DNA of 63,990 nucleotides, the filler included, from Perkinsus olseni (lineage: Eukaryota), in the NCBI GenBank assembly GCA_013115125.1. It is 3 parts of 3 records of this genome, joined end to end, with 100 filler letters (N's around TTAATTAATTAA, not from the genome) between each part and the next. Parts side by side here need not be neighbours in the genome. Positions count along the whole stretch, not along the records: positions 21,899 to 43,628 come from JABANN010000553.1; positions 43,729 to 63,990 come from JABANN010000581.1; 1 more part is not named here. One strand, 5' to 3'. The notes under the pieces are model-generated. The model searched no databases. It was not told where the DNA came from and was given only the letters and a program-made list of their open reading frames with translations. Of the stretch, positions 22,966 through 46,728 are shown piece by piece (position 1 is the stretch's first letter; every line of letters starts with the position of its first letter). The position numbers and the translations under genes were made by a program.

Positions 22966-25900
22966 ATGGCGACCGACAACACAGCAAGCGTCGAATCGCC
23001 ACAGCAGCGGTATGTGGTGCCCAAGGTGAGCAAATCCACTAGTTGCTGCCTCTCATCAGCTATCCACCTCCAGGTTCACGGCGCCCCGATCTGCCCGATC
23101 TTCGGCCGTATTCTCGTCTTGACCGTCACCCTCGTCGTATGTGCCTTCGTCGCGATGACCTGGTAAGTTTAGAGTCCGAGGGAGCGCTCAATAGACTGCG
23201 GCCTCTCCTGAATTCCGAGAGCGCTTCAGGATTGAACTTGACGTCTAGGAGGGGATCCTAGGTAGCTCAGCTGAGGCAGTCTATTGTCCACTACGTTGTT
23301 GGTCGCAGCGCCATCGACGGTCATCACTTCTCAGGTATTGCGAGGGCATCATGTGGATTTACGACCCTACGACCAATTCTTGGCCGATCTATGACTGCCC
23401 CAGCTTAGCCGAGTCCTTCAAAATCCAGAATAGGGAATTTTCTGGTAGGACTTGTCGCATGGCCATCGCCTACAACTATGAAACTGCTTACAACATGCAA
23501 AAGGCTGGTATCACTGTACCGTACGGAACCAAGCCCGAAGATGCTCTGGAGAGGTGTATCTTACCTCACGAGAGCGAAGACGATATTATGTGCTACTCGG
23601 TGAACCAATGCACGTACATGTGCCGTACCGCTGACACCAACGAGAACTGCCCTTATCCTGGTACCATCAATAAGGACACTACGGAGATTGCTGATAACGA
23701 GCAGTGTAATATATATGTTGCCAGCCAGACCTTCTCGCAGACAGTTGACTGCTATAAGGTAATATCATGATCTGTGGGAGGTCTGGTCAGGAGTGGCGTA
23801 TTTTAGGTTGAAGTTGGTCCTTTTTGTGGTCGCCAGTTTAGAGTAACTCCCTCTAATATCTTGGTTATGAGAGGCATTATTGTGGCTACTGTATTTATGA
23901 TTGTATTTTGGTTCATTTCCGAGTTTGGTCTGAGGGCTACGGAAAAGGGTTTGAAGCAAGAGCAGGCGGAAGGCAAGGCTAGGATGGACGTTGAGTTGCC
24001 AGCCAAACGGAAGTGGGTGCCAGACACGGTATCGACCTGGTCAGTACTGTTTTGGCAGGTTCCTTCGAGAACAGGTCGAGCAGAGGTGGGCGGACGAAGC
24101 TCGGTACATGTACTCGCTGGACCCCAACTCCTCTCTCTGGGGCGGCGACCTCACTGCGTCAGCGGGTCAGAGCGCGAGGGCTGCTGGATCTGTTGTCACG
24201 CCGACTGTTAACAGTCCGATGATGTCAACGTAATGAGGTGGTTGTGATTGTTTTTGATGATTTTTGATTTTCAGGATTGGAGGTTATCCGGGCATGACCG
24301 CCAGCGAGTACAGCGAGCAGATAACCAAGGGAGGATTCAAGAGCAGATTGTGAGGGGGGACGATTTGGTGAAGGTGTGGTATGGAAGCGTGCATGCCCGT
24401 GCTCTTTTCAGGGAGTCTCGGGATCCTCGGAAGCGTTTCGAGTCATCCGCATGGCAACGGCGGATTGAGCAGTACCGGACGTTAGGAAAAGACAAGAAAG
24501 CAAGATTTGTTGCCAAGGAGCACTTCCGTATGTTGATAACTACTATCATTATGGCGTGCTGGCGTCCTTGAAGCCTCCATTTCTAGGTACACTACTACTC
24601 AATGGTTTCTTCATCATTCTTATTATCGTTTCTCAATTCTGTATTCTATATTTCTCTCCTCAAAATATGCATTCCCAAGAGAGCCTGTATGAAGCCTTCG
24701 TTGGTGTGGTATCTATTTGGAATGCTGTATCTGCTTTGGATTGGATTATCTTCCTCGATGTGTTGTTGGATGTGGTACTCTTCTTTGCGGCCGCATGTGT
24801 CGTCAAGTGGCCTAAGCCTCCAGTGAGTGGGAAATGGTCTAGTGGTTAAATTCATGGGTTGCTATGCGACAGGTCGCGGGTTCGATTCTGACTGCGTTAT
24901 TTTAGGTCTTCTCTCGTCATATGCAAGAGGAGCTCAAGGAGACTGCAGGTGAGGGTTACGGCGAGGAGTCTGTCCCTCTGAAGGAGGCGGGCAAAGAGCC
25001 GGCCATGGGAGCAGCTGTCCCGGAGGCAGCCGCGGCAGACCAACCAACAGCTCAGCGCAAGACTCTACTACCACTTGATGGTGCTGATAATTTGAGTGAC
25101 GTTGATGCTGGGAGTGACTTCGAAAGTGAAGATTCGGCGACAGTTGACTTTGTAATATTTTTACCTCTGGCCTGGTTCCGACGACATCATCCTCGTGCCA
25201 GGTACTGGAACAAGCCATGACGGGGGACGTCTGCTTGCTTATTGCTTGTCATAACTCTGCCATGACTGAGGAGAGGTGGGCTCCTCTATTTCACCCTCGG
25301 GGGGTATGATCGCTTTTTTCAGGTATGACGTTTTCACTGGCACTCTCAGAGCTGCCCTGATGGTCTTCCCGCCCACCCACATCTTCGTATGTGATAATGG
25401 ACGGGATGCCAAGCCTTTTGATGAGACCCAATGGGCCACCCAGCAGGTAGTAGTAAAATTCCCCCAACTCGTGTGAGGGGGGAACGCTTCCATCAGGTGC
25501 ATCCTGACATTAACTACCTCTTTGTACCCGAGGGTAACAAGACCTTTGCCTTCTATTGGTGTAATAAATATTGGATACCCTTCCTTCATAGATGTGGCAG
25601 GGTCCCCGCCTTTAAGTAATAGTGCTGTGCCTCGGTCGGGGAGTAGGGTTCATTGACAGGTACGCGGTAATCATTGATGATGATGTACCCCTGCCGGCTG
25701 ACCTCCATATCCCTCATCAAATGCTAGACCAAAACCCGAACATCAAGGTGAGTTCATGGTCAGCTCTCGGGTTCCAATGGAGGCTTCCTTTCAGGCGGTT
25801 CACTTCCCTATTACTGCAACGACACCCGATGGACACCCCAACCAGTTGGTCCGGTGTCAGGATGTCGAGTATAAGCTGGCTGCAGTGCACAAGCTGTTCC

Positions 25901-26881
25901 AGGCAACTCTGGCAAGGAGCCTGAGTTGTCACGGTGCTATTGCACTATGGGACCGGCAGACCATGGACGAGGTGAGTTCGGCTGAGTGTCGTGCAGGAAG
26001 CGTTGGAATGAGCTGACAGGTGTTCTATGAGCATGATACCGTCTTCAATGGCGAAGATCTTTACATGGGATTGTCCCTTCTGAGACGACGTGATGACTCC
26101 AAGATCATATCAGCACCTCAGACCATTGTGCCCACCTACGCTCCTGATACCTGGTACGTATCTTACCATCTTCAACCTCGGATATTTTCTCAATTCAGGT
26201 CGATGCTGTATCGTCAACGTGTGAAATCGTGGGATGTTACTTCACATAAGAAGACGTTCACGTATCTGTATGAAATCCTCACCCCTAGAGGTTGGTTCCA
26301 TCTCGCCAGTTGGGTACTCAAACCCTACTTCATACAGGAGGTAGTACTACCATCCAATGACCGCGCGCCACGAAATTCTCCCTCTCATTGTGTGCAGTTC
26401 CTCACGATTATACTGGACTGGTTGAGAGCCTTCCTCCTAGGAGGTCTGATCATACGTGATTGGATTACCTTTGTTATCATGCTACTGGTCTTCACTGCCC
26501 TACTTTACATTATGGTCCTGGTCTTCTACTTCATCGTGCTTCGAGACAGGAAGGATATTCGACCGAGTGTCATGACTGTTATACTCTTCCCCTGGTAATA
26601 AGGGCAATAGGAGGCGTCTGTATTGATATCGATCATCCGGGCGAGCGCGGTTTGTATACTGTGTTGGCAGGTACCGATTGTCAAGTTTGCTGTTCCGATT
26701 GGGTGCACTTTGCCAGAATCTTCTAATTTATTCCCATGAGAGGAAGGGCATCAAGATCGGCGTCCGAGAGGATGAGATTAGAGATATCCCCCCATGCCCA
26801 CCTCATCCGGATGTTGATTGGTTTACCGTATGGACTTTGCCTGAGGACGACAAGAAGGACGAGGAGGACGGAAATCACTGA
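22966..26881 (+). CDS. Membrane-bound processive glycosyltransferase family 2 (hyaluronan/chitin/cellulose-synthase-like), multi-exon
   Basis: Motifs HIFVCDNG, EGNKTFA, VIIDDDV (DxD), GEDLYMG and LYRQRVKSWD (QxxRW-like). Several TM segments flank the catalytic region, and there is a Cys-rich N-terminal loop (23351-23760). Confidence 0.85.
24829..24896 (+). repeat. tRNA-derived element (A box + B box) filling a GT2 intron
   Basis: TGGTCTAGTGG...AGGTCGCGGGTTCGATTC lies inside intron 24823-24905. The acceptor stem is not intact. Confidence 0.65.
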
Positions 26882-27275
26882 GCTGATCGCTCGTAGTAAT
26901 GTTGCTATTATTATTACTCTTCCACATCATCACCATCGTACTCGTGCTACAATTATGTTCAGCGAAGGCAGGGACCGACCTGAAGTGCTGGATGGTCGCT
27001 CAGTAGCGTGTTACTGGTTTCGCATCCTCTTCTTGAGTGAGTCGAGTTGTCTCATATGTCCTTAGGGCAGGCTAGGGGTGAGGGAGGGTTGATGAATTTC
27101 TATGGGCCTTGGAGAGGATGGGAAGGCCGAGTCGTATGTTAGGATCGAACGCGGGACTATCTGCTTCGCGGATGAACACTTCATCCGACTGAACTGCAGA
27201 GACCGAGAGAATGCAGGAGTCTTGTATTTTAGTGGGCGATAGTTCAACTGTTCTGGGACAGCCTGTTGATGTTCT

Positions 27276-28308
27276 ATGGCCGGGGCAACAGCCCTAAGAC
27301 GATCATCCAGGCTTCAGATGGCGGTCGATGAGTGAGTCAAGGGGCCCAGCAAGTGAGAGCGACGGCGCCTGTCTGACGCAGGGCAGCCACCACGAAGGGC
27401 AGCAAAAGGCGACAGTCGGGAGGGTTGTTGACGACGACCGCAGATGGAGCGTCGAAGGATGTCGATCGAACAACAGAAATACGTACGAGGGGGTTGAGTC
27501 GATGCCCTGAGGGCGGTCGGGCCGAGGTCGTTGGCAGGCAAGAAGAAGACCCCGATTATGTCGATACGAGCGCGGTGTCGGAGGAGCTCTCGGTTGAGCA
27601 TGAGACGTGACAGCGTTGTTGAGACCGCCGGGTTCAGTACCCCGCCCAGGTTGCTCGGACAGATGCAGTCCCCGCAGGAAGTGAGGTACTTGGATAGGTG
27701 TGGGTGGGGTAGTGCTGCTGCTGCTGCTCAGCTGTCGCAATGGTGGACCAGCGACTACGATGCTTGCCCGCCTTACTTTGCGCATGAGAATCATCCCTTG
27801 TACGACATGCGGTACTCTCCACCAAGCCAGGACGATCGTCACTGGAGGCGGATCATCAGGAAGTCGACTAAAATGAGAGGCACGCCGTGAAGGGCCAGCC
27901 TGACCTCACGCTACAGCTGGTCAGATGCGTGTTTGACTGGCAGACGGCGGACTAGTGTCGCATCGAGACGAAGCAGTATATCTAGCACCTTTACAGACGT
28001 GGGTACGCGCAGCCACTGTGACCGGCAGTATCCTCTAGGTTCCGCCGCCGGTGGAGGAGTCGGACAACTTCAATCCGGTGAGCCTCGCAGAGCTGCAACA
28101 GGTTTGTGAGGAGCTAGGCAAGCCCACCGTCGCCATTGCGAACCCTCCGACGAGGCGACAGGCGTCCGTGTCGTCCCGTCATGGTGAGGCGTCCATGCCT
28201 CCCTGCAACCGTCATAGTCAGCCAGGCACTACTCGACGGAGTGCCCGACTCCACCCACCAACCCCCCGCAAGTCGACTCGACGCCGAAGTGCACGACAGA
28301 GGCGATAA
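27276..28308 (+). CDS. Hypothetical low-complexity multi-exon protein (possibly the 5' part of the bromodomain gene)
   Basis: ATG at 27276 (MAGATALRRSSRLQ), exon-like ORFs 27531-27890 and 28051-28308, and an Arg-rich C-terminus. Confidence 0.35.
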
Positions 28309-28632
28309 CGAAGCCTTCAACCCGTTACAGCCTCTTCGTTATGCGCATGAGAAATTTGATCGGTGGTGTCTTCGGGGTAATGCCCGGTATCATTGCCAGA
28401 AGCAGCGAAGTCTGCTGTACACGATGGTCTCCCTCTTTCTGTCAGGGTTGGGTTGTTGAATACTATGCTTATCTAGCAGTACATTATTGCACTTTTTAAT
28501 GAGCGCTTCAGCGAGGCCGTTGAAGCTACCTGGCCGTGATTCTACACGGGTATTGCACGCCTTGGCTGCCAAGGGTGATACCACTCCTTTCAGAACTCTC
28601 ATCACTTAGCGGCGTATGAGCAACAACAGACT

Positions 28633-29022
28633 ATGCCCGACTGGGAGCGTAACGAGTATCGGAGGTTGATCCAGAGGATCTGCAGACACCATAAGGATAT
28701 CGTGGAGCCCTTCGTGAATCCTGTACCGAAAACTGTCCCGCGGTACTACGACGTCATCTCCACGCCAATGGATATCGGCGTTATTCGAGAGAAGCTCGAC
28801 AGTTTCGCCTACTCTTCCCGGGCCGAGTTCGAGGGCGACATTAGACAGATGCTGAGTAACGCTTATTTGTATAACAACCCCGGCGAGTACGTCTTCGAGA
28901 AGGCGTTGGAGTTCCACGACCTCTTCAACGAGCAGATGAACGCAACTGTTGCTGTTGTATTGGACCGGCTGGCTCAGGAGGAGGAGGCCATAACGAAGGT
29001 TAAGCGACGAAAAAAGGAATGA
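28633..29022 (+). CDS. Bromodomain-containing protein (terminal exon or whole small protein)
   Basis: EPFVNPV...PRYYDVISTPMDIGVIREKL...Y....EFEGDIRQMLSNAYLYNN, with the acetyl-lysine-binding Asn retained and a basic C-terminal NLS-like KVKRRKK. Confidence 0.92.
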   Translation: MPDWERNEYRRLIQRICRHHKDIVEPFVNPVPKTVPRYYDVISTPMDIGVIREKLDSFAYSSRAEFEGDIRQMLSNAYLYNNPGEYVFEKALEFHDLFNEQMNATVAVVLDRLAQEEEAITKVKRRKKE

Positions 29023-29881
29023 AGTTGATCGTTAGTATTCCCTGCTAATGTAGTTAAGTATTTATTCAAAGGCCGGTGGTATCTTGTGTTCAGTTTTCGG
29101 TTGTATAACAATCAGTAGCCATCGTACCCCTACCGACGTCCGGATGATGCGTGTCAGTTTAAAGTCCAACGCCGAGAATCGGCTCAATCATCACACCAGT
29201 ACGGATGTGTCCTACAGTACCCACCGTCTAAAGACTGTATCTGCTTTGGCGGACCTCACGCATTCAATTTTCCATGTTATAAGCTGAAATTTTGGATATA
29301 GAGGTTTTTTTACTATGACGGATGGCTTAGGGGGTGAACGTGACAGTTTCACGAAAAAACGGGCGGGCGAAAATGAACTTGAAGAGGGATTAGTTCAGGC
29401 TAGTTCACCGAGGTTTGTGGTGCTCAGACTCGAGGCTCAGTTCTTTCCTCTCACGGCGGTGCCTGTGCACCACCCGACAATGTGTTTGTGGGTTTGAAGT
29501 TAAACTCCGACATTCCGAGAGAAAAGGTTTAGCCTGTCGAATGGGCCCTGCTCATGTTGCTCACAGAGCGAGGTCAGCGGCCGGGATACTTCCGGCCGGG
29601 TAACCTGCTTCCTGACCGTCGCCTGGCGCCTCTGGGTGGTCACTTTCGAACACAAAGTATTGATCGAATCAACCACAACCAAGAAGACTTTCATGCGTGC
29701 GAAGTAACTCCTGATTCAATCGCGGTGGCGCTTCAGACTTCCTCATAGAATATCTGAAAGGGGACAGGTGGCTTGCTTCGTCGCCCGCAATTCACTGCTG
29801 ACCGTTGCCTCTTCAAGTGCGTGCACACTCGCCACGCCCGGGGGTCCACTAAGGCCCGCTGACTTCGGGAGCGCTTCTCCG

Positions 29882-30667
29882 CTAGTCGCAGCAGGGCGAA
29901 CTGTTCGAGGACCTGATCATGAACCTACTAGGATGGGTTCGAGGGAGTAGTCGGCCGACCGTTAGACGTGCCGCAGCGTCGGCCTCTTCAGCCTCTTCGC
30001 CCACCACCTCCCCTTCCGCCTCGGACTCCTTGTTATTATCGACTATCGTGGCATCCCACACAACACGATCGAAGTTGGTTAGCCGTGGCAAGGACAAGTC
30101 GGGAAGAGTAAACCCTCGCCGAAGGAGGGCCTCCGATTTTGGCTGCGGCAGACGGGGAGACATCTCGTCGCTGTCGCTGTCGCTGATGTAGCTGCTGAGC
30201 ACTGATGATGACACGTCGTCAGTCGTGAGCACTCCGGCGGGCATCCAAGGCAACGCCAAGTACCTGCAGACAGCTGACCACCGCAGCTGCCTCACATTCT
30301 CACGGCGATTTATGCCGTGATCTTAAAGCTCTGAATGACCGCGAGGGTCGCCTGTCGAGTCGCCTTGTCTCCGGCCGTTTCGCCGACCTCCGCTGCTGAT
30401 GCTGACTGGCCGTCGGCAGGGCACCGTGGCCTGAGAGGAAGTGAACAGTCGTAGTGTCCTTCCCGTGCTCATTGGGGACCTCGACTGTAGTCCTCTAAGG
30501 AGAGCTCCGTGAGGGCGGTCGTATAGGGGCTGTCGCGGAAGGAGCCTCTCGACCCTGTAGCCGTTGTCGCCGCCGTTCGGTTGCCTTTGCGACTGTGGCT
30601 GGACGGGGTGCTCACTCGAAGGCCCGGATGGATCATGGACCACACCAATGGAAGACGACTCCTTCAT
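29882..30667 (-). CDS. Hypothetical protein, Ser/acidic-rich
   Basis: Consecutive minus-strand ORFs 30323-30733 and 29882-30295, co-oriented with the gene cluster. No motif recognised. Confidence 0.35.
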
Positions 30668-30735
30668 ATTAATGACAAACACAAGGCCAGTGTGGTAGTT
30701 GAGGAAAGTTTTCAAAAACGTCACGCGCCACAAAA

Positions 30736-31397: not shown

Positions 31398-33997
31398 TCA
31401 GCAGCATGCATCGACGATTCTATCGAGAAGGTCGTGGTACTTGTAGGAGTCCTCAGCGAACAAGGCCACCGTCGGAGCCCTGCTGGCCCAACTCGAGACC
31501 ACCAAGTCCGATGGTATCCAGTCACCTCGCTTCACTATGATGATGTTGAAGAGCTTGTCAGGGGCGCCAGGGCGCGTGCAGCGTATGATGGGAGTTGGAT
31601 ACGCCTCCCACGGGATGGCTAGAAGGGAGGCGACCTTCCTGACTGCAGAGGCAACCTCGTGATCGGGCGCAACACCGATGAGGTCCCTCAAGGAAGGAAG
31701 ATCGTCCGTTCGCACCACTCCTCCTGAGGGCGACCAGACCAGCAGCTTGGTGACAAGATTCGGCTGGGGACCATCGAGAAGCCGGAGTGACCACGACTCA
31801 GTCTTCCGCCCCTCCTTGTCAGAGGTTGGCGCTCGGTCGCGTACCTCCGGTAGTCGTAGTACAAGTTGTGCTAATCTCTTCTCGTCTGGTGCCAGCAGCT
31901 TCAAAGATTCCCTAAGATACCTCAGAAGCCTCGCCGGCACCCGGCCTTGCAGCCACCACAATTCCCCTGCGGTCTTCACCAAATTCCTCCCATCAGTTGC
32001 CCCTCCGAACGAGTACAACTCCCAGCTCTGCCCGGCCAGCCGTCGACCGAGCTCCCCTACAGTGTCATTGCCTCCGAATCCAGACAGTGTGCACGCGTGC
32101 AACACCGCAGCCAGCGCTGAGAATGACCAACTCCCCTCCTCTCCGAACCAGGCTGTATTGAACCCTCTCGGCAGCTTTCGAGTTGCTATTGCGAAAGCAA
32201 GAGTAGCATTAGCGATGTCCGTTGGATCAGTCAGGCGGAGCGAAGCGTTTTCCGTTTCCACTTTTTCAGAGGGCAAGGCGGATACCAGCCAGTGCCAGAA
32301 TACATGAGACTGGTCCAAACCGAGAGCAGCGAATCCCGCCGCAGCCCGAGGGAGGCATCTTGAAGGCGTCTGGGACGGGGCCGAGCAGAGGAGCCTCGAG
32401 AAAAGATCGGCTAGGCCTAAGCACTGCCATGGGCTACCGTCCGAACAGGAATTCAACCTGACCTAGGATCTCCGGCGCTGTCGTCTGGGGCGGACGGTCG
32501 ACCGCCCCTCCCTGTAAGCTTGCGATCAGACCCACGGCGTGTACGAATTCGGACAGGCTATGGGCGTCAGGCTCAGATACAGGGGCTAGTCTCGTGGCGG
32601 CATGCTGTAGTAGAGCGCTGCTCACCTGACATCCCGAAGACCTCGGGTTCGATCCCCAGCAACAACGTCGGCCTACTTCCGTCCATACCCTATCATCATC
32701 TTCACACAAGCCATGCGCCCTCGTCCTTGACGCCGCCTGTGCGGCCATTGCAAGCTCTTGCCAATTCATTTGATGCACCACCTGCAGCAGCCTCGCCCCG
32801 TCAGTGGACAGCTCCCCGAAGGTCTACCGTAGCGAGCCGGCCCTGCAAGGCTTCGTAGCAGCTCTTCCTCATCCTCCTCTCCTCCTCGATCGGAGCGCCA
32901 TCATCATCAACACGAGTGGCTGTTTCGGAGTACCTACCGCGGTCCTCCTAGGAGCACCTTCATCCCTGAGTCACCAACATCAGCTTTGCCAGGGCCCGCC
33001 AGATGATGGCCAGACCCTGGGCGTCCATGAATTTGCATTGGGAGGGTATGAACCGAGCACATGCAGCCACGACCTCAGCATCCCGGACGGAGACTCGGGA
33101 GCACGCCGAGAGGATCTGCGCCTGTCCACAGGCGATGATGAGGGGAAGGAGCGGTATTGGTACCAAGTCCTTGACGTGCAGGGTAGATTCATCATCACCA
33201 TCGACCTCCGTAGTGACTAAGATACCCTCCCTCATTATCTGCTGGAACATGACGTGGATTGTGAGGGCTGTTGGGTACTTCGAGAAAGCATGACATAGCA
33301 GAGCGACATCCTTCACTCGGTATCTGGCAGTACGTATCCTAGGTCGAACATGGGAAGATACAAAATAACTCAAGTTGGAGGACCTACTTAGATTGAGTGG
33401 GTTTGTGCCTCTTCCCTAAGGCTCCAGCGAAGCAATCGAATACTTCCGTTATGCTCGGCATGGCTCCCTCTCCTTCAATTAATTCCGGGCATCTTTCCTC
33501 GGCCAGCCGGACACACGAACTGGCGATGGCCGCCAAGCTCCGACACGAGAAAGCATCAACCCGGGCCATCGCACGACGTAGACAGGCTTCCACCACTGCT
33601 GTCGATTCTGAGGGAAAAACGGGAAAATGCAACCTCACCATGGCAAGATCAACTCCGATAAGTATCGATCCGCGTATCTTTCAATCCGGCGGGTTCACCT
33701 TGATTCAAGTTCGTTGGTGACCTTGTGCATGCGTGCAGAATATAAGATACGTCCTGATGTGAAGGATTGCTCCTAGCCTCCATCGCCTCCACTGCCCTGA
33801 GGGCCACAACAGTGTCTGCCTCCCTCTCCCGTCCCCCTCTACTACTGTGCTAATGCAGCTCTCCACATGCCCAGATCGCTCCTCCTCTTCTTGGCCAGCG
33901 TCGATAGTACCTTTCGGACGTCCAACGGCCTGAGCCCTCCGCCGCCCACCGCCACAGTCGTCTCCACTGCCCGCAACAGCAGTCGTGAGGGGACCAT
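31398..33997 (-). CDS. Helical-repeat (FASTK/RAP/OPR/HPR-like) putative organellar RNA-binding protein, multi-exon
   Basis: Recurrent repeat-like motifs: FSCRSLAAIASSCVRL, VKDVALLCHAFSK, MDAQGLAIIWRALAKL, MNWQELAMAAQAASR, DPTDIANATLAFA, WSFSALAAVLHAC. The Arg-containing N-terminus reads MVPSRLLLRA. Confidence 0.5.
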
Positions 33998-34103: not shown

Positions 34104-35245
34104 CTAGTCCCCTTCTGAGACCGCCGCCAAATCAGCTCTGGTTTTTCTGTATTTCTTCTTCCGCTGTGGAGCTTCCTCCACCTCTTCTTCTACGATAGCC
34201 TCGTCAATCTTCTCTTCAGTAGGCGTCTCCTTCGTGCCTTTCTTCAGCAGCTTCAGGAATTTGCTTTTGGAAGCGGTGTCCAATCCTGTGGAAAAGACTC
34301 ACCCCCATCGCAAGAGGCCTCGCGTTGTCAGTCACGACTAACAAGCCTTGGTGCGGTGGAAGACGACGCCCTAGAGAACGTTGGAGTCGCCAGAGAGCCA
34401 CACACCCTCGAGCGAGCACTACTGACAGCCAGGCGAAGAAGGACTTCGATTCGCGACACGAGCTATCTTTCCATTGCTAAGCGAGGCTGCGGACGGTAGA
34501 CCGGTGTTTACCAGTCCTTCATGCGACCAAAGCCCGCTACTACGAGTGCTGGGAACCTCCTTCTCCACAACCTCCTCTCCTTCATCCTCATCCTCTTCGC
34601 CAACTTCAGGCTCCGGTGCCCGGAAATCCTTGACCTGACCATAATCACGCCTCGCTGCTGTACGAAGGCACCCTCCCTCTACTACCGCATTGAAGACAGC
34701 TACCACGCCCTTGGTCGCAATACGACGATACTCTCTCTCTAAGGGGAGCTCGAGGACTGGCGGCTCCGTAACGTGGAAGGCCGTCCGCAGGGATTTCCGA
34801 TGCTAACAGCGAAGGAGACGCTATTCTACTTCAATGGATAACTCTACCCTACCGCAGCAAGCCTCTTGCGTATCTTTGCTTCCTCCTTCTCCTCCTCTAT
34901 TTTATCCACCACCTGACTTCCTACTATTTCTGATCGCCACTATAATGGTATCACTACCCCCTTGTCCTCAGCCAGCGTTGGCTCTTTTTCCGCCTTCCCT
35001 AGGTCCCTAGTGACGATTGTCTTGAACGCAGAAGCGAAGGCCTTCACGCCACCAGCCTCTACTGGTGCCTCATCAGTCGACTCGATTTCGGTGTCTACTT
35101 CTAAAAGCAATCCCGATAGGGTTAACTCAGTTTAATCATCAGTAATACCCTCATCGTAGCTCTCCTCTCCTTCAGAGCTGGGCACGTCCGACCCTACTAC
35201 GGGCTCTTCTTCCGGATCAACGGGCGTCTCGGGAACCACCGCCAT
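34104..35245 (-). CDS. RRP15: RRP15-like 60S ribosome biogenesis protein
   Basis: Spliced translation gives an acidic N-terminus, AFASAFKTIV, EREYRRIATKGVVAVFNAV (Rrp15 signature) and SKSKFLKLLK. Confidence 0.8.
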
Positions 35246-35408
35246 TACACCCAAGTTTGCTGCTGCCGTGGCTTCCACACCTCCCCCCAAACGCACAAAC
35301 ACAACAGAACTGAATAGCCAGTAAACCGTCCTAGACTGTCGAGACAGTCGTTGGCCCAATGTTAGCTGACAGCAGCAAATGACCTCGTCCGGTAGCAAGC
35401 ACTGCTGC

Positions 35409-35832
35409 TTAATCGAAGAGATCGAAGCCCATGTCCTCATCCTCCTCCTCTTCCTCCTCCTCAACCTTCTTCTCCTCCTCAGCGGGAGCGGCCTCAGCAC
35501 CACCAGCAGCGGCACCAGCGGCGGGCGCGGCGGCAACGGCACCGACGGAGCCAGCGGCGGAAAGCATCTCGGAGACGTCCTTACCCTTGAGCATGCGGGC
35601 GAAGATCACGGGCCAGTAGGACTCAACGTGCTGAGAAGAAAAACAATAAGAAAATGCATGAGCGCCCCTGATGATGAGTGAAGCTTACCCTGGCGCCAGA
35701 GGCGTGGATGAGGCTGTTGAGGTTATCGGAGGTGATCTCGAGGTCCGAGTCGTGAAGGATGAGGGCGGCGTAAGTGCACAAGAGCTCGTCACGCTCAGTA
35801 CCGGGGATATCGTGAGTGGGAACAGCGGCCAT
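35409..35832 (-). CDS. RPLP1: 60S acidic ribosomal protein P1 (one intron, about 35631-35688)
   Basis: [13 protein letters not shown]...[10 protein letters not shown], an Ala-rich hinge, and [14 protein letters not shown]. Confidence 0.96.
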
Positions 35833-35999
35833 GACTAGAGAGGCAAAGCGGTTTAAGCTGTCTGCAGTAGGGCAGATGGTGAAGAAGAGAGGCATCCGCG
35901 CATCCGAGCGCTATACCATAATCGATCATCGTGGCGAGCGAGATTGACGGCGCACTTTAGAACTTCAACAACCCTTCACGTGAAGTAACGTTAGTGAAC

Positions 36000-37152
36000 T
36001 TAGGACTCTGCTGCATCAGCAGTGGCTGCGGAAGGAGCTTCTTGCTTATCGTCACCTCCCCCTTGCCTTCTCCGTCTCGAGCGAGTGCCTACGAAGACGA
36101 CCGATCGGCCGCCAGAGGGACGCCAACAGTACTCACGCTTCTGCTTCGTCGTCGTCGTCTGCTCCTGGGTGTTGTCCTCCTCACCAGCAGGCGCTTGAAC
36201 TTTCCGTTTCTTGCAGCTCAGAGGGTTCGGGGCTCTCGGACCACGTCGCTTCTTTTTGCTAGTTTCTGACGGGTTGTTAGACAACACCACCACGCTGAAT
36301 CTATACCGACCTCGGGCGTCTCCCGCCATCGCCTCCGCCTTGGCCTCCTCCTGGCGGAGTATCGGCAACTTACTCTTCTCCCAACTTTGCACTGCTTGCT
36401 TCTCTGAGAAACCAACCACTATATCGAGTTGAGTTCGGTACTAGCTCACCGTTCTCTTGCTTCGCAGCAACCCTCATAGAAGCTTCGCTCGGTTGCTCTA
36501 TTATCGGCACCTGCAGGCTCATCATCATCGACGGTAGTGTTCGGTCTCATACTTGGCCACCATGTAGTATTATCAAACCCGCCCCGGGTACTCGACGAAC
36601 ACGCTCTCTCAAAGCCTTGTCTTGGGTGCCTGATGCATGCAAAATGACATGACCGGGGATAGAACCCACGACCTTTCTGCTGCCCACTTACACACTAAGT
36701 ACTGTTTCGGATTATTCGATGCCAACTGCTTGGTTATACAATCTGCTGCAGAGCATCTGAACACGACAGCGGAGCGAAGCGATTCACGAATGCATTTTCA
36801 TCTCCTCTCCCTACTCTCCTTTAGTGTGACCACACTTAAGCCGGTAGTAGCCCCGAGCGATAATGGCGCTTCCCGAGAAATCCGCACCCAAGTCCCGAAG
36901 CTCTTGATATACCTACATAATGGTATCTTGCACGCATGCACAAAAGATACTCCAACCTACACATTCAGTGACAACAGGAGTTGTTCGGCCTCCTAAGAGT
37001 TTCGGCAACTGTTCTTTGATATGAACTTTCGACTTCAACGCAGCGTCGATGAAGGTGCCGTCGATGAGCGCCCTGTAGGGCTCTTGGAAGCCGAAGGCCG
37101 TTTGGTAGAAACGCATCACCTTACGGTGCGACTTTTGGCGTCTTATCTTCAT
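36000..37152 (-). CDS. UTP23: rRNA-processing protein UTP23 (PIN domain), multi-exon
   Basis: MKIRRQKSHRKVMRFYQTAFGFQEPYRALIDGTF...VVTEC and C-terminal KKRRGPRAPNPLSCKKRK. Confidence 0.93.
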
Positions 37153-37286
37153 CTTAAACTAACTTAGTATTACTAAGAAAATAGGAGGACAAGCCTTGAA
37201 AGCAACCCGTGAGAAGGTGCGGAAACTGTGCATAAAAAGGCGGTGCTGGGGTTCGAACCCGCGGCCTTTGGGTTGAGCAGTGAGCA

Positions 37287-38143: not shown

Positions 38144-39431
38144 GCAGAAAGTAAATAACAGAAATCTGAGAGTATCCAAGGCTGACCATGGTCTTGCACA
38201 ATTCCTCCCCCCGCAAGATCCACACGCCCTGAACTACCAAACGAAGAGCAAAGACTCAGTAATAACAGAAACTCGGCAGGTTACGTCGCATCATGCTCTC
38301 ATTCATCCTCACCCTTCCCAAGTGGTCTCTCCCTCAGTAGTTTCGTTTGACGAGATTCGACCGGAGCGGTAGACAGATATCCCTACCACCCCATCGCAAG
38401 GGACCCTTCCATATACCAACTTTTCCAGACCTCGCCGATCATAAACTATCATCGTATTGTAGCCTACGATCAATAGACATCGCTGTCTTGAGATAGACCC
38501 TCCTAGTCCCTTCCCAACCTGAGGGAAACCCTCGGTACTTAAACCCACGCAGGTTCTATCCCCACGAAATCTTCTAATGTAGCGAATTGAACTTGATCTG
38601 CCGTGAGGAGTATAAGATCATTGCTCAGCCTTCCAGTCTGGAAGGCCAACCCTGAGGGTTATCGAGTCACCCCCTTGGCCACTACCATTCGCATGAGGTC
38701 AACGAACCTCAACTAGCCACTCGATACGGAGCTATTGAGTGCGCTTTTCTCTGTCCTGTTCGGTACTTGTCAGTTTCAGATCAGCAACCAGGTAGCGTCC
38801 CGAGCTCGCCATCCAACTAGTAGTTGGTACCCACCGTTGTTCCCCGACGTCTGGGTTAAACCCGTGATCTCACATATCCTACCTCCACATCCAGGACAGA
38901 TCTCTCGGTCGCTATCACCCCACCCATCAGTTAGGTCTTCGGCAGAGTCACAGTACTCCACCAGCACGTGAAAGTCTACTCCAGCCCTTCATGCGGGAGT
39001 TTCTGCGGTGTTTTGGTGGCGCGTCATTCCCCCAGCGCCCAACCGTCCACGGTAAATCGCTACGTATCTCTCACCCAAGTCCATCGTGAGAATTCTACCA
39101 CACAGTTTTCCGCGGCTCCAGCACCACTCTGAGCACTCGAACCCCCTAGCATACCCTAGTCGTCCTGTAGACGACAATGAACAGTCCTTGCACCCGATAG
39201 CTGTTCGGCTGTTCAGGAGCTCGTGACGCCCCAGCAGGTGGCTCCAACTTGGTGGCGCCAGGCTGATCGATACTGCACGTCACGCCGTGACGTGACCCCC
39301 CTGGCGTGACAACGAAGCCACCTCAAGAAGCAAGAAGATCCTGTTCCTGTGACTTGTCCAGGAGTAGCGTCTCGCTGAGGCTTGATAACCACCGTTCCCT
39401 TGCTGCAGTTTGCAGTGGATTCTCGAACCTC

Positions 39432-40440: not shown

Positions 40441-41249
40441 CCATTTCCAAAGATCGGCAACTTACAACTGACGACGACTACATTTTTCTCAAGAGTCGCA
40501 TCTCCTTACGTTCTCCACTTAGAGTACACTGTGCTTCGGTAGTCATAACCCGGCCTTTCTGAATGTATGTCGTCTAAGAAGGAGAGCGTCAGTTTGTTCT
40601 CAGAGTAGTTCTTATCGCTCAACCTTAGGAGGAGTATCACAGATCGACATGTACCTTGGAGCACGCGTTGGTTGCAAAAACTTCCCACCAATATCGGCCC
40701 ATTTTCTCTACTAAATACTGACGGTTTGCGTTGTAATCTGGCTCCGTTACTTAAAGATCGAAAAGGACTCCCCTTGGCAATGTCGTAGATAGTGACCTAT
40801 AGAAGCCTTTCGGCGAAGAATAGACGGTGCTGGGGTTCGAACCGGGGACCTCATGGTCGGAACTCGATGTTGAGTGAGTTCGCGGACAGAAGACAGGCCT
40901 TCAGTGGACACATAGCTTGTCAACGGGAAATTTGGAGGAGCGAGCCTCAGGGGACCACTACGTGCCTTGTGTAGCAGTTCGTCTGGAGTATTCTCGCTGG
41001 CCCTCTAAAATCCGAGGGGTAGTGTTTACGTGCAAGAGAGTGGCTGGACACCGCGAGAAAAACGACCAGCGCTCTAGACAGGTGTTTGGCACCCTAGCCT
41101 CGCATGATCCATAGATCTCGGGGTCTCTTCAGACCCCGCCCCACTAGATAAGAGCATGGTTCCCGAACGGCTTAACCAGTCGCTCTGGTCCAGTCGTTTA
41201 AGAATTGACACGTACGCGGTTCAATCCGCGGTACGGGCGCTCCAGAGGA

Positions 41250-41835
41250 TGTACCCCCGCCAGCTCTTCGAACTTTCCCGTACCATACTTCGAAAGGGGA
41301 AAGGACGACTACTAGGATGCCCTATAGATACAGCAGGCTACAAGCAAACGCCAATCCTCGTACACATAGACGCGAAACATACTCAGAGATGATCTACTTA
41401 CCCTGACACCTGGGGTGATGGGCAGGCCGGGAAGTTGCGTCCGAAGTGATCCCACTGACGACTAGCGGCCAACCTGAGGCTTCCATTCGACGTTGAGGGG
41501 CCTTGTTAGGAAACCTGGCAGAGGAGGTGGAAGAGAGCAAACGGTTATTGACACCCAGAACAATCGCATGCTACGCCCGAGGTTGTCCAAAGAAGCAGGA
41601 GCATTCTCACTGCTACTGACCCTCCCTAAGGCTCACGATCAAGTGATAATGATGATGATGATGATGATAATGATGATGACGGCCCTTGAGCTTACCCGAC
41701 TACCCTTCCCTACTGTGCCGGTGAGTCTCCTTATCATGGGTATCGCCATGGCTTTGATCTCCTCCAGTTTATTCCCAGCCTCCTTTTCACCATCTAATTG
41801 CCCACCATTCAACTGAGGGGAACCTGTCGACTCCA
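41250..41835 (-). pseudogene. Decayed duplicate of the PRA1 gene
   Basis: About 41700-42010 is near-identical to about 38005-38320 (exon 1 and upstream). About 41260-41560 is a degraded, partly deleted copy of PRA1 3' exons (shared CAGCTCTTCGAACTTTCCCG) with stops. Confidence 0.7.
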
Positions 41836-42209
41836 TGCAGAAAGTAAATAACAGAAATCTGAGAGTATCCAAGGCTGACCATGGTCTTGCACAATTCCTC
41901 CCCCCGCAAGATCCACACGCCCTGAACTACCAAACGAAGAGCAAAGACTCAGTAATAACAGAAACTCGGCAGGTTACGTCGCATCATGCTCTCATTCATC
42001 CTCAGCCTTCTCAAGCGGCTTCTTCGGGAAATGCTCCCTCATGTAGTGTTGGAACATCCTTTGCCGAGCATCATGCAGCATCAGCAGTCGTGGTCTGTTA
42101 GAATCGATAAAATCAGTCTAGTACCACATTTCCCCTACCTCGACTGAAGCTCTATCAGTTGCGCATCGATCTTTGCCCACCGACTTGCGGTATCCTTAGT
42201 GATCTTGAT

Positions 42210-43530
42210 TCAGGGGATCCGACTTGAGCGGCAGACAGAAATCCTCACCTCTCCTTTATATACCAACTTTTCCAAACCTCGTCTGTAGCACATCTTTATC
42301 GTATCATAGGCGTTGGCCTCCTGAGACAGCCGCTCCTTCTTCTTCCCTGAAGAAAACCCGCAGCACTGATGCAGTAAAAGCCGCCCCCACGTACTCAGCC
42401 TGGATGCTCTCTCCTTCGTCCACTGCGAAAAATCTACCTCCCAGTGGTTCTTCGGTTTTGGCATGACCTTGAGCCCCCTTACGACCTGTCATTACTCAAC
42501 ACCACCGGCGCACAGCAAGGGACATTACCTGCCGCCGATAGCTGCCCAGACTCCTAGGGAGCTCGATGCAAGGTGCAGAGAGCATGAATGAAGCTGGAGA
42601 AGTCGCAGGTTCGAACCCCACAGCCTGCATTTTTCCACTGAAACTCAAAGGCAAGCACTAATGAACACCAGAGGTTGGTGCAAGCATGTGAGAACAGATG
42701 GCAACTATAATCATGCCAGAAAAAAATTGTTTCAAGATAGAGTGACAACTTGACGAAAGCAAAACGTTCAATCGCATCAGACCACACTGCAAATTTACAT
42801 GACCTAATGAATGTCCGAGCCAGGATTCGAACCGGGGACTTCTTCCTACCTGACAACTCCCTCGTCCGGCCCTTGGTCTGCGCTTCCCGGTGTGTTTCTT
42901 CAACAACTTCTCTCGAAGTTCTTCCAGAGACTTGACTATCTGGAAGGTCACTGAATGTACAGGCCTCGATCCTCAACGAGCCCACTTACCTCTGCGAAAG
43001 AAAGCCGGTCGCCACATTCCGCACTCCAGCATTGCGTCAGCATCGCAATCAAAGAGGCTGGAACGTCGGGTGGTATCTTCCCCAGTTCATGCATCCCGAG
43101 GTTCCAGGATCAACCCGACCACCTTACATCGTATAGGTCCGGTCGTTCACCGCTCAAAATCTTCATCGTCACTTTAATCGGATTGAGCTCCCTGAAGCAC
43201 CGCCAACCAATCGCGAAAATGGCTCAAAAGTACTAAATAAAAACCCGCTTCGCTCCGCTGTAGTACCGGAATGGAGGCATTGCTGATAGTATCTCGTAGC
43301 AAACAATCGCGTAGCTGTAGATGTCGGCCCTTTCATCGTAGTGTGTTGAGTCAAGAACCTCAGGTGCCATCCACCATATTGTGCCGACCTGAAACAAGAA
43401 TGGGTAATCGAGAGGCCCCCGGGTCGAATCCCCCACCCACTACTTTTCTTGTCATACTCTCATCCCTTTCTGCCTTCGCCCTGGCAAGTCCAAAATCAGT
43501 TACTTTCACCACAGGCTCGTCCGAAGGCCC
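42210..43530 (-). CDS. Protein kinase (TKL-like), C-terminal part; 5' part lost in the gap; 3' end approximate
   Basis: VKVTDFGLAR, VGTIWWMAPEVL, ADIYSYAIVCYEI, GERPDL and MLTQCWSAECGDRLSF. Confidence 0.88.
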
Positions 43531-43559
43531 CTAAAAGCCCCAATAAGAACCACCGTCAT

Positions 43560-43560
43560 C

Positions 43561-43628
<68 letters not shown>
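43560..43628. repeat. (CAA)23 microsatellite, intronic, truncated by the gap
   Basis: Perfect trinucleotide run directly upstream of the kinase acceptor site. Confidence 0.95.
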
Positions 43629-43728
43629 NNNNNNNNNNNNNNNNNNNNNNNNNNNNNNNNNNNNNNNNNNNNTTAATTAATTAANNNNNNNNNNNNNNNN
43701 NNNNNNNNNNNNNNNNNNNNNNNNNNNN
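43629..43728. other. Assembly gap with artificial six-frame-stop linker
   Basis: N44 + TTAATTAATTAA + N44. Confidence 0.97.
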
Positions 43729-44347
43729 GCCAACGTTGTCAACATTAGCTGCGTTCGGAATTTGGACAACGTTGACGATGTTGACGAAATTAGGAGCCCC
43801 GCGTTTGTTTCACGATTTTCGTGCTAAACTGAATCAGTTTAACTGATGAAGCTGCTATTGGTAATCGTCGTGATTTTTTCGGTGTTGAGACACCAAGTTG
43901 ACGGGGCAGGTCATCTATCCGGACAGGTGAGGTGTGCTCGGCCGTTGTCCGGTGTTGATGCTGTTGTTGTTAGAGAAGCGCGAGCGAGAATTCCGACGGG
44001 CCGGAGTCTCCGGAGCCCACCAGACCAAGCATTCTGAGAAGTCCCACGAGAAAAACTTCCTCTCGGAGGAGGAGGAGGGGAAGGAGAGTTAGGTTTGAGA
44101 ATAAACAGGATAAACGGGGATCGACTTGCCAGGACTGCCCGGATTCCCCTGGTGGTTACCCGACTAACGATGATGATGATTTCTACGACGACCCGAGGAT
44201 GTCCCTGTCCATCGATCAGCCTGATGGGTATCCTATTGATGAGCTCGTAGGCCTCAGTGTGAATTAGTATTGATGTTAATGTCATGGTTGTTGGTGTGGT
44301 TTGGGGATGTTGAGTTGTAGTGACATAATTCCCAAGGGTGAACGCAT

Positions 44348-44410
44348 GAGTAGTTCAGTAGGGTGAAGAGATGGTATATCACGCGTAAGGTCCTGGGTTC
44401 GATCCGTGCT
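44348..44410 (+). repeat. tRNA-derived element (A box + B box), intergenic
   Basis: TAGTTCAGTAGG...AAGGTCCTGGGTTCGATCC, with no intact cloverleaf, about 20 bp upstream of the ATG at 44427. Confidence 0.6.
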
Positions 44411-44426
44411 AGGTTAGCGGTGCCCT

Positions 44427-45806
44427 ATGTTCTCTCCGGCGGCGATTATTCGTCTCATCCTAGCCGTCTCCATCCTTCCATCTGCCGCTGCTGCTGGGGA
44501 TGTCGCCGTTCTTGAGAAGTGCGCGGTCGACAGCGGTACCGGAGTGACGGCAGTCCAGTGGAAAAGTGGCAGCAAAACTGGTGATACGGGGAGGAGAGAG
44601 AGAATGCTTTTACTCGCTCCATCAGGAACGGTTAGCAAGGATGCAGCGATTTCGGATAACGGCCATCCGTCGGTCTCTTGCGACCTCAGTACTGCTGAGT
44701 TCTATCCAGCTCAAGTAGCATTGATGGTGAAATTCAGAGAGGGTAAGTGTTTGACATCTTCTCCATCGTCGTCGTTTGTGAAGTTTTCTGATTGGCTTTT
44801 TCGCAGGCGAAGATATCGTTGGCGCGCCGGATGTGCAGGTCATCGAGATGACACGTGAGGGGGTGGAGGAGGAGTTGGGGAAGTTATGGTACTGATGCAG
44901 GCACAAGCGGCTCGTCCAGGACTTACACCGCTGATATCCCCGTTGCTGGCGCTGGTGCGATGACGCCAAGGGATGGGAAGTCCGACGGATTTGGACTTGG
45001 CGGAAAATTCACGGTTGGGGGTTTCAGATACGACTTGTCGATTTTGGTCGGCGATCACAGGATGCCGAAAGGCTTACAGCAAAATATAGGAACGGTTCCC
45101 TTCGTGTTCCATCAGGTAGGTGATTTGGGGAAGGTGTGGTATGCATATTTCCGGGGTATCATTCAGGCGGCAAAAGAAGCGCTGAGCAAGAGCGGCATAC
45201 CGGAGAGTAGTGACTCTCATGCGGCGACGAAATTTGCAGGTGACTGAGTCTGGATGACATGACTAAGTCGATTGATTTTGTCTTGCCTTCCTCAGGACGG
45301 TATCTTCCTCTGCCATTGATTGCTCACACCTTCAAGCCACCTCAGAAGACCCCACCTGTCGCAATCACTGCGGTGTTTGTGGTGAGATTCACAGCTAGAG
45401 GTGTCAGTAAAATTTCGGCGCGTTTTCTCAGGCTCTGACTACTGTGATTCCGCTGTTGGCCTTCCTGCGCGGTTTGGGTTTGCTGAAGGCCAACACGAAA
45501 TTGTGGAAAATCGACTTGCACGGGGTAGGTCAATGAAGATGCGTCGAAGGTATCTTAGGTTGATCCGTGCATCAGATGGTATTCTTCGGAACCCTGGCTG
45601 CGTACTTGGCCGTGTTGGGGATGTTTTTCCTGTTTTTGAATCTCGTGCAGACGATGATGCTGTGCTTACTTCTACTGCCGGTGGCAGTCATATCAGGGAA
45701 CAAGGTGAACAGCACGCACGCAAATTCCCATACCAACTTTTTCGCAACTCACGATTAGGTGCTGTGCCAGAGTAGAGCTGACATGCTGGGAGGGGCGGCC
45801 AACTGA
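44427..45806 (+). CDS. Hypothetical signal-peptide protein with C-terminal transmembrane segment(s), multi-exon
   Basis: Signal peptide MFSPAAIIRLILAVSILPSAAA, GT-AG introns, and hydrophobic FFGTLAAYLAVLGMFFLFLNLVQTMMLCLLLLPVAVI. Confidence 0.6.
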
Positions 45807-46728
45807 TAAACGATGACGACTGAAGGAGGGAAGGCTTCGTTTTTACAGCTGATATCTTTTTTCTGCGATTATTATGTTATTGAGTTAAAAAGCAGTGTCT
45901 GGGGATAGAACCCGGGACCTTTTGCTACAAAGTGGGCTGTTTGAGGAAGTGCAAGATTCGCAAGATTGCAAGTTTAGTCTTCTCGCGCTATCAAGAACGG
46001 AAGCGTAGGGTAATTCTTAAATACAAGGGAGATGGCCGATTTCCAAGGAAGCATCTTCTGGGAGCTGGTTGCCCTTTCGGGTTTTGGGAGGAGTTTCGGG
46101 TTTCCCGTCCCTGCCCCCCCGTAATCCAGAGGTTATCTTCTGTTGCCTTTGCCTGACTGTCGTGCGCGGTTTACTTGGACTTGAGTCTTCACCCGTGAAT
46201 CTCGAAAGTCTCGAGCGAAAATAAACGCGAAGGCGTTCGAGAGAGACCCTGGCTGCATGATCGGGATGATGGTAGTTGAAAGTGAAGGAGAGAAATCGAC
46301 CCGAAAATTTCGGGGGACTTTTTTCGATTGCTATTCATTTCGGGCAGAAATGGCTAGCAATCGAAAAAAGCGAATCTTGTTGTTATGATGAGACAGGCGT
46401 TAGAGGTGTGCGAGAGAATCTTGAGGTCAAGATGGAGAACATAAGTCGACGCGAGGAAGATATCTTACGCTTAATGTGATAGAGCGGATGCTGAAGGGAG
46501 CTGTAGAGGGATTGTGTCGAAGGAGACATCGTTAGGCTTTGGCACCACTACTAGCGGTCTGCATAAAGATTCTCCTAGCGCACTGCATAGAATTTCGCAC
46601 AGTGTATTTCAAAGCGTTGAGGACTACGATCGTCGGCTGTAGTGATGGGATAGTTATCGGGGAGAGGGAATTGAACCAGGGTGTATCGGTTGTTAGTTTG
46701 ATTAAGTTACACTACCTCCCTCATTGAG

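Follow-up and report, generated by a model that had tools for sequence, protein, structure and literature searches.

tRNA-like B-box copies cluster in short introns and intergenic spacers of a Perkinsus olseni genomic region

The window, by which we mean the whole 63,990-base stretch of DNA that was analyzed, comes from Perkinsus olseni, a member of a genus that parasitizes oysters and clams. Among the genes in its middle part are a UTP23 gene and a kinase gene, and in and between the genes lie 11 copies of a short sequence built around a tRNA T-arm/B-box motif. All 11 fall between 24.8 and 46 kb, a stretch of ~21 kb. Five copies lie in introns of 46 to 83 nt (three in sense and two in antisense orientation) and six in short noncoding intergenic spacers, as had been proposed for the copies outside introns; none lies in coding sequence. 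Two copies (class I) extend over the length of a tRNA gene. The other nine (class II) are units of ~35 nt, consisting of a variable-loop-like RRAGGTC, an imperfect T-arm with the B box, a further 7 to 9 nt and often TTTT. The copies are as follows.

24830..24903 (+): class I, full-length decayed tRNA-like copy; A box 24835-24845, B box 24879-24889, TTTT 24900-24903.
32634..32664 (+): class II; antisense in the 51-nt intron 32626-32676 of a − strand gene.
36644..36677 (−): class II, T57 variant GGTTCTATCCCC; sense in the 62-nt UTP23 intron 36630-36691; profile E = 6e-4.
37236..37269 (−): class II, followed by TTTTT; sense, in the spacer that precedes UTP23, 84 nt before its start codon (37152, − strand).
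38548..38573 (+): weaker class II copy, T57 variant; the surrounding stretch has stops in all six frames.
40821..40853 (−): class II; noncoding, ~120 nt upstream of an ATG near 40701 (− strand).
42597..42631 (+): class II, followed by TTTTT; in a spacer downstream of the kinase stop codon, antisense to − strand genes.
42811..42844 (−): class II; sense in the last kinase intron, 42804-42849 (46 nt).
43410..43437 (+): class II; antisense in the kinase intron 43389-43443 (55 nt).
44344..44418 (+): class I; A box 44351-44362, B box 44396-44406, spacing 45, without a T-run.
45890..45923 (−): class II, T57 variant, followed by TTTTT; noncoding, ~106 nt upstream of an ATG near 45785 (− strand).

The motif GGTTCKAWYCC has nine matches on the two strands of the 63,990 bases, against 0.21 expected, and none of 100 shuffled windows contained nine or more (largest shuffled count, 1). 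The palindromic site at 37249/37250 is read on both strands and supplies two of the nine, leaving eight distinct exact sites; the motif is thus more frequent than in shuffled sequence, as the original prediction held. That prediction listed ten places, all of which were recovered as real with a 36-column profile, although the profile was made from the copies themselves and its matches to them are by construction. Nine of the ten positions were matched at E < 0.05 (24867, 32637, 36644, 37236, 40821, 42597, 42811, 43410, and 45890), with the copy 45890..45923 (−) giving the best match of all (E = 2.7e-5), and the tenth was matched at 44385 with an E value of 1.2. The profile also revealed the copy at 38548-38573 (+) (E = 0.023), which the earlier list lacked. 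Nothing comparable was found with this profile at 1 to 24 kb or at 46 to 64 kb of the window. Clustering was significant both for the exact sites (eight within 13.3 kb of the 64-kb window; P = 1.2e-4) and for the profile sites (10 within 21 kb; P = 3.3e-4), with all counts covering one 64-kb window. A profile with the B box masked, meant for copies whose B box has decayed, had no power (E ≥ 0.56 for known copies).

We then compared the copies with the parts of a tRNA gene. An A box stands at tRNA distance from the B box (44 and 45 nt) in the two class I copies, and the other nine copies are at the background A-box score; a perfect score is reached by 1.3% of random 50-nt stretches. In six of the 11 copies TTTT starts 7 to 9 nt past the T-stem, compared with 4.8% of background stretches (P = 4e-6), and in class II units it sits where a Pol III terminator would be. 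Similarity among the copies stops ~12 nt before and ~24 nt after the start of GGTTC. Beyond these limits, neither the upstream flanks (best single-pair P = 0.014 among 55 pairs) nor the downstream flanks (best single-pair P = 0.0075 among 55 pairs) are more alike than random window segments. An apparent extended homology between 32646 and 37259 (ATGCTGTA..GCTCAC) failed a flank-only test, and a nested set of 5′ truncation points was dropped, as the stretch concerned in 32646 is a coding exon. By reading of the profile rows, the T-stem forms two to four of its five pairs in every copy, the mismatch C50/A64 is common to seven copies, and three carry a T at position 57, which is always a purine in tRNAs. 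These common departures from a real tRNA arm make up a sub-family pattern, which suggests that the copies were made from already mutated sources.

As anticipated, tRNA finders made no call. ARAGORN reported no tRNA genes, and its relaxed calls were rejected as tRNAs (“introns” of 14 to 1806 nt and poor stems). The Rfam tRNA model had no match at the gathering threshold or at E ≤ 10 over 24.5 kb, nor in short searches with 151 nt around the copy 24830..24903 and 141 nt around the copy 44344..44418. The attributes of a functional tRNA, i.e., a cloverleaf recognized by tRNA finders and a paired 5-bp T-stem with purine 57, were accordingly not found. There is no conserved RNA fold among the copies: z was below −2 in one of the 11, the copy 42597..42631, which alone has a significantly stable fold (z = −4.3).

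The tRNA-like core also occurs elsewhere. The 21-mer with the C50/A64 signature had 119 matches in metagenome contigs, 81 of them in tRNA-like repeat heads or tRNAs; an A box lies near −44 in 72 matches, ARAGORN called a tRNA in nine, and the remaining 38 have neither. The T57 variant GGTTCTATCCCCAG was found in one marine SINE-like family too (L003, L048, and L054). Rodent B2 and ID elements are tRNA-derived SINEs with tRNA-related heads. The heads of the metagenome families have the identical 21-nt T-arm core, including the nonpairing C50/A64, and two window copies share with SINE heads an A box at tRNA spacing. In contrast, nine of the 11 window copies have no A box, nor anything upstream of approximately tRNA position 40. 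The unit is ~35 nt, without a body or a LINE-like or A-rich 3′ tail. Inspection by eye of the flanks of three copies revealed neither target-site duplications nor terminal repeats or tails; in old copies, duplications could have disappeared. The proposal of an old tRNA-SINE family is therefore upheld in its tRNA ancestry (the A-box spacing in two of the 11 copies, the position of the T-run, and the core in tRNA-like heads elsewhere), but “SINE” applies only in part, since the set as a whole has neither the paired A and B boxes nor the body and tail. Mammals have tRNA pseudogenes and truncated, tailless tRNA retropseudogenes, which resemble the window copies in their decayed cloverleaf, their makeup of partial-tRNA fragments, and their dispersal in noncoding DNA; unlike the retropseudogenes, the window copies end in a terminator-like T-run and not in CCA.

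To place the copies within genes, we relied on RNA contig joints or on alignments with P. olseni proteins, an ab initio search for GT..AG boundaries and ORFs around the copies being ambiguous; the RNA evidence is at the contig level, and such contigs cannot show transcript ends or small RNAs. The 83-nt intron 24823-24905 (+) of a + strand gene is, as had been claimed, almost wholly an A-box plus B-box tRNA-like sequence: the A box TGGTCTAGTGG is at 24835 and the B box at 24879 (spacing, 44), and the copy 24830..24903 fills the intron in sense orientation. Contig pieces of two RNA runs begin exactly at 24906, and the joint is not among the 15 of 58 joints listed. The name “GT2” proposed for this gene was not borne out, as the flanking ORFs matched no Pfam families. 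The other three introns predicted to carry the motif do so. The UTP23 intron 36630-36691 (−) has joints in all four RNA-type runs and belongs to a gene with a UTP23_sensor Pfam match. The probable intron at ~32627-32676 is exactly 32626-32676 (−), 51 nt with GT..AG ends, and corresponds to a 17-residue gap in the alignment with the P. olseni protein P0002; a piece of the RNA contig X7 ends nearby, at 32623. The kinase intron at ~43390-43440 is exactly 43389-43443 (−), 55 nt; in two P. olseni kinases the protein sequence continues over it without a break as ...DESMTRK|VGTIWWMAPE, and the Pkinase profile runs on across it. A fifth intron, 42804-42849, is matched by the P. olseni kinase P0009, which ends ...GRGSCQVM in agreement with the predicted splice, and an alternative kinase model, P0008, has a longer intron that also holds the copy 42811..42844. 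For the two antisense copies, the GTAG donor coincides with the copy's 3′ end or follows it within a few bases (in intron 43389-43443, the donor GTAGTG is the antisense of the 3′ end of copy 43410..43437), and in the sense cases the T-run falls in the pyrimidine-rich stretch before the 3′ AG.

We favor, with a probability of roughly 0.55, the reading that these are decayed, mostly 5′-truncated copies of a tRNA-gene-like source in the Perkinsus genome. The two class I copies would be full-length pseudo-tRNA genes that kept the A box, B box, and tRNA spacing and lost the cloverleaf; the nine class II copies would each represent the 3′ portion of a tRNA gene, with the 7- to 9-nt stretch in the place of the acceptor strand. 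Their origin may lie in 5′-truncated copying of a Pol III-type transcript, or in the capture of DNA pieces from a gene of this kind. Truncation probably took place at origin, because a B box that is ~90% intact next to a wholly absent A box does not fit uniform decay, and a mature tRNA is less probable as the source than a primary transcript or the gene, because the copies end in a terminator-like T-run and not in CCA. Insertions may have survived only where they were tolerated, in tiny introns in either orientation and in short intergenic spacers, and copies inside introns are simply spliced out. Any present-day function would be putative. Several observations sit less well with this reading: no ordinary SINE or MITE is as short as this unit, the flanks inspected by eye showed no duplications, terminal repeats, or tails, the B box is better preserved than its surroundings (in part through ascertainment), and a neutral dispersed family does not predict the observed clustering.

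The claim that such elements created introns is plausible because they fill 33 to 74 nt of introns that are 46, 51, 55, 62, and 83 nt long, where the usual length is 42 to 62 nt (14 of the 15 RNA-verified introns listed for the region). In an introner-like process, tRNA-derived fragments inserted in coding sequence would have made new, tiny spliceosomal introns, and the intergenic copies would be by-products of the same insertions. Without the elements, the preinsertion introns would have been only ~9 to 24 nt, too short to splice, and the intron ends hug the element, both antisense donors being placed at or just past its 3′ end. The process as a whole nevertheless seems to us rather doubtful. 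The introns are alike only in the ~35-nt core, so the element carries no splice sites, and their ends differ; six of the 11 copies lie outside introns; and the same result would follow if an element had inserted into an intron of normal size that later shrank back to the preferred length. The intron positions are also common to the P. olseni models, so any intron gain predates the split between the window sequence and those models. A cross-species search with read-through ORFs over the in-frame intron 32626-32676 gave no matches. P. olseni itself is probably too close for a conservation test, since 18 residues of one P. olseni model, which takes them from a stretch that is noncoding 3′ flank in the window, are 100% identical. 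Amoebophrya has “invasive intronic elements” (described in the available part of PMC7789003), which, as in the window, are repeats accounting for the greater part of short spliceosomal introns in an alveolate; introner copies, however, are alike over the whole intron and mostly intronic, whereas the window copies share ~35 nt, occur in both orientations, and are intergenic in six of 11 cases. A combined view is unlikely: a Perkinsus mini-element amounting to the last third of a tRNA gene, with its B box, acceptor-like strand, and Pol III terminator, would have inserted in coding DNA and been rescued as 46- to 83-nt introns in either orientation, a Pol III-derived “introner” whose B boxes might double as clustered putative TFIIIC sites.

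Budding yeast has extra-TFIIIC (ETC) sites and fission yeast has COC sites, which are B boxes without an A box that lie in spacers between Pol II genes. Nine of the 11 window copies likewise have a B box without an A box, and six copies lie in spacers just upstream or downstream of genes. They could be maintained solo B boxes, predicted to bind TFIIIC without Pol III transcription, with the cluster marking or insulating a chromatin domain in a compact genome. Orientation relative to host genes shows no bias, the copies are significantly clustered, and a preserved core stands between unrelated flanks, a contrast that is partly one of ascertainment, since the copies were found via the B box. According to the available part of PMC11811891, which mentions both ETC and COC sites, TFIIIC reads the B-box G base-specifically, and the human factor contacts G66, T68, C69, G70, C74, and C75 of the B box at 65 to 75; by reading of the 11-mers, all of these contacts are intact in six of the 11 copies. 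Three others share G70T at a base-specific contact, however, and two have lost C75. Conservation also runs past the 11-nt B box (AGGTC, CCCAG, and the T-run at a fixed distance), more than binding would require, and five copies are intronic. Both the T at the contact G in three copies and the constant T-run position weaken the chromatin-organizer reading, and we regard it as quite unlikely. Our literature search found no report of ETC/COC-type sites in alveolates. Working small-RNA genes (tRNA-half-like or tRNA-like Pol III transcripts) or RNase P/Z 3′-end processing signals would account for the B box with a T-run at terminator distance in six of the 11 copies and for an A-rich 5′ edge that can pair with the T-run in a few. 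They are very improbable, given the imperfect T-stems in all 11 copies, z scores above −2 in 10 of the 11 and no conserved fold, the lack of any tRNA-model match, and an orientation relative to host transcripts that is about evenly split.

In the main texts covered by our literature search, among them the available part of PMC3101222, we found tRNA-like elements nowhere described for Perkinsus. If intron gains did occur at the intronic copies, these would offer a concrete, datable source of new introns in a short-intron alveolate, from tRNA-gene fragments, a sequence class not usually linked to intron origin. Should TFIIIC bind the B boxes, the cluster (nine sites in 13 kb) would give a handle on chromatin organization in a lineage in which the control of transcription is poorly understood. 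Failing both, the copies would be ordinary tRNA-derived relics, still of value for annotating repeats and for putting users of tRNA and gene finders on their guard.

Individual copies show some further features. The class I copy 44344..44418 (+) lies in a divergent spacer, directly upstream of an ATG at 44427 (+) that, judged by eye from the DNA, reads as the start of a hydrophobic, signal-peptide-like N-terminus. At the copy 40821..40853, one run has RNA contig pieces that end at 40819 and resume at 40845, and a contig of another run spans the site.

The T-arm/B-box motif GGTTCKAWYCC matched nine times in the window against 0.21 expected, while 100 shuffles never gave more than one match. One palindromic site matches on both strands, leaving eight distinct sites, and the recurrence described in the original prediction was thus confirmed. 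We then placed the copies with a 36-column profile built from the copies themselves, which is circular for those copies. Ten sites had an E value of <0.05: nine were among the ten positions originally proposed, and the tenth (38548-38573) is a copy absent from that set. The remaining proposed position, 44388, was recovered only weakly (E = 1.2). The eleven copies span only 24,867 to 45,923, and the next best profile matches in the window had E values of >2. Under uniform placement, both the confinement of the eight exact sites to 13.3 kb (P = 1.2 × 10−4) and that of the ten profile sites to 21 kb (P = 3.3 × 10−4) are improbable. Scarce non-coding space elsewhere was ruled out as the cause of this clustering, since short ORFs, and hence introns, were found along the whole window.

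None of the copies lies in coding sequence. Five are intronic, three in the sense and two in the antisense orientation relative to the host gene:

Introns containing a copy
24823-24905, 83 nt, sense copy (24830-24903); RNA contig pieces from two runs begin at 24906
32626-32676, 51 nt, antisense copy; GT..AG ends, corresponding to a 17-residue gap in the alignment with a P. olseni protein
36630-36691, UTP23, 62 nt, sense copy; splice joints in four of four RNA-type runs
42804-42849, kinase, 46 nt, sense copy; the end of P. olseni kinase model P0009 (...GRGSCQVM) exactly matches the predicted splice
43389-43443, kinase, 55 nt, antisense copy; the Pkinase profile and the two P. olseni kinases continue without a break, joining ...DESMTRK directly to VGTIWWMAPE...

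The four introns that had been predicted to carry the motif are all present, with slightly adjusted ends for the second (about 32627-32676) and the last (about 43390-43440), and the 83-nt intron is indeed nearly all tRNA-like, with an A box and a B box. In the second kinase model, P0008, a longer intron at the place of the 46-nt one likewise contains the copy. The other six copies occupy short spacers (as predicted) or stop-rich stretches, assigned by stops in all frames or by a short spacer adjoining a start codon:

Copies outside introns
37236-37269, 84 nt upstream of the UTP23 ATG
38548-38573, the sixth non-intronic copy
40821-40853, sense, ~120 nt upstream of a minus-strand ATG
42597-42631, after the kinase stop
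44344-44418, ending just 5′ of the ATG at 44427
45890-45923, sense, ~106 nt upstream of a minus-strand ATG

The eleven copies are not tRNAs. ARAGORN called no tRNA gene in the window by default and only artifacts with "introns" of 14 to 1,806 nt at lowered thresholds. Rfam gave no matches at gathering scores and no tRNA match at E values of ≤10 across 24.5 kb or in searches limited to 151 or 141 bases enclosing the two copies that most resemble tRNAs; a pseudogene call or none had been anticipated. Read from the aligned rows, every copy retains only two to four of the five T-stem pairs. Seven share a C50/A64 mismatch (3′ strand, CCCAG), and three (36644, 38548, and 45890) carry T at position 57, where genuine tRNAs have a purine. 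Folding of 44- to 48-nt segments gave no structure common to the eleven copies, and only one (42591-42638; z = −4.3) was more stable than its own shuffles.

By anatomy, the copies form two classes. In the two class I copies (24830-24903 and 44344-44418), a perfectly matching A box lies exactly 44 or 45 nt 5′ of the B box (1.3% of random 50-nt stretches reach this score at any offset); these copies are full-length pseudo-tRNA genes with decayed stems. In the nine class II copies, A-box scores are at background level and the common sequence is only ~35 nt: a purine-rich edge, a variable-loop-like AGGTC, a T-arm holding the B box (SCGGG-TTCGAWC-CCCAG), 7 to 9 less-conserved bases where a tRNA gene has its acceptor 3′ strand, and often a T-run. 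TTTT starts 7 to 9 nt past the T-stem, the place of the Pol III terminator in tRNA genes, in 6/11 copies (P = 4 × 10−6; background, 4.8% of random 24-nt stretches from the same region). Beyond the unit limits, the flanks were no more alike than random window segments (best single-pair P values, 0.014 upstream and 0.0075 downstream; not significant after correction for 55 pairs each). A longer match between 32646, where the stretch is a coding exon conserved in P. olseni, and 37259 was therefore counted as chance.

We consider it somewhat probable (roughly 55%) that a tRNA-gene-like source gave rise to the copies. The non-tRNA mutations that the copies share (A64 in seven and T57 in three) speak for copying from sources that had already mutated, not for eleven independent tRNA genes. 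Class II units were probably truncated when made, because uniform decay would not leave the B box near-intact and the A box wholly absent. A Pol III primary transcript, with the U-run and without CCA, may have been reverse copied incompletely to give these units, or they may equally be captured gene fragments; neither target-site duplications nor tails were visible by eye. Copies would survive only where the compact, intron-dense genome tolerates them. Our search of the open literature, at the level of main texts, returned no earlier description of such Perkinsus elements.

Descent from a tRNA-like source may coexist with the creation of introns by element insertion, which we regard as doubtful. 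The elements take up 33 to 74 nt of introns of 46 to 83 nt, so that the introns before insertion would have been implausibly short; 14 of the 15 RNA-verified introns listed measure 42 to 62 nt. Alternatively, the element may have inserted into an existing intron that later regained the preferred length. It is unlikely that the copies are ETC-like TFIIIC sites, although the solo B boxes, the spacer positions, the clustering, the lack of strand bias, and the conservation of the core between unrelated flanks would all fit, and all bases that TFIIIC reads specifically (PMC11811891) are intact in 6/11 copies. Against this reading, three copies share a changed contact base, the conserved AGGTC, CCCAG, and fixed-distance T-run are unneeded for binding, and the contrast between core and flanks is partly ascertainment. 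Working small-RNA genes or processing signals seem very improbable given the broken T-stems, the mixed orientations, and the lack of a common fold.

A 21-mer of the T-arm core with the non-pairing C50/A64 signature gave at least 119 matches in at least 118 metagenome contig loci. Among the 119 matches listed, 72 had an A box near −44 (most from one highly repeated tRNA-like family), 9 were ARAGORN-called tRNAs, and 38 had neither, many of them resembling G+C-rich coding DNA; one marine family has the T57 form GGTTCTATCCCCAG. Since the listed matches lie mostly in tRNA-like heads, the core is the T-arm that heads of tRNA-derived repeats usually have and is not peculiar to the window genome. What is unusual in the window is that 9/11 copies have the 3′ part only, unlike those heads. 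A highly repeated tRNA-like head (loci L002, L010-L012, L014, L017, and ~50 further listed loci) has the A box TGGTCTAGTGG, the same T-arm as the window copies, and then ...CCAGATTTTCTGAG; it recurs within one group of metagenome data sets and evidently represents a SINE-like family from a eukaryote in those samples. Locus L110 is a tandem array of ~27-nt units each containing GTTCGATCCCCAGCCACAAGG, i.e., the T-arm core as a minisatellite.

The evidence comes from one 64-kb window, RNA-type contigs of four public runs, and protein comparisons. The window is eukaryotic, and very short introns abound in it. A 354-residue ORF (31401-32462, minus strand) is 93% identical to a P. olseni hypothetical protein, and the window kinase matches two P. 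olseni entries annotated "protein kinase kinase kinase" piecewise at 87 to 100% identity; these matches place the window in Perkinsus, in P. olseni itself or a near relative. The two kinase models disagree at the C terminus (42651-42849, minus strand): one, with the 46-nt intron, terminates in ...SCQVM, and the other uses a splice site ~145 nt beyond and gains 18 residues 100% identical to the non-coding 3′ flank in the window, which could reflect alternative splicing or an annotation artifact. Because of this identity, P. olseni sequences are probably too close for informative comparison. Among the 15 RNA-supported introns listed in 34286-36960 (minus strand), the one outside the 42- to 62-nt range, in an Rrp15-like gene, is 258 nt; six begin GTAG, not GTAAGT/GTGAGT, and no branch-point consensus was obvious. 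At 35666-35744 (plus strand), a sequence with UGAUGA and CUGA boxes weakly resembles C/D-box snoRNAs (21 bits; gathering score, 75) and overlaps, on the opposite strand, the intron region of a 60S acidic ribosomal protein gene. Positions 21799-21898 and 43629-43728 each consist of two 44-N runs flanking TTAATTAATTAA, contain stop codons in all six frames, and are read as assembly or scaffold-gap linkers; a long CAA repeat (43560-43628) directly precedes the second.
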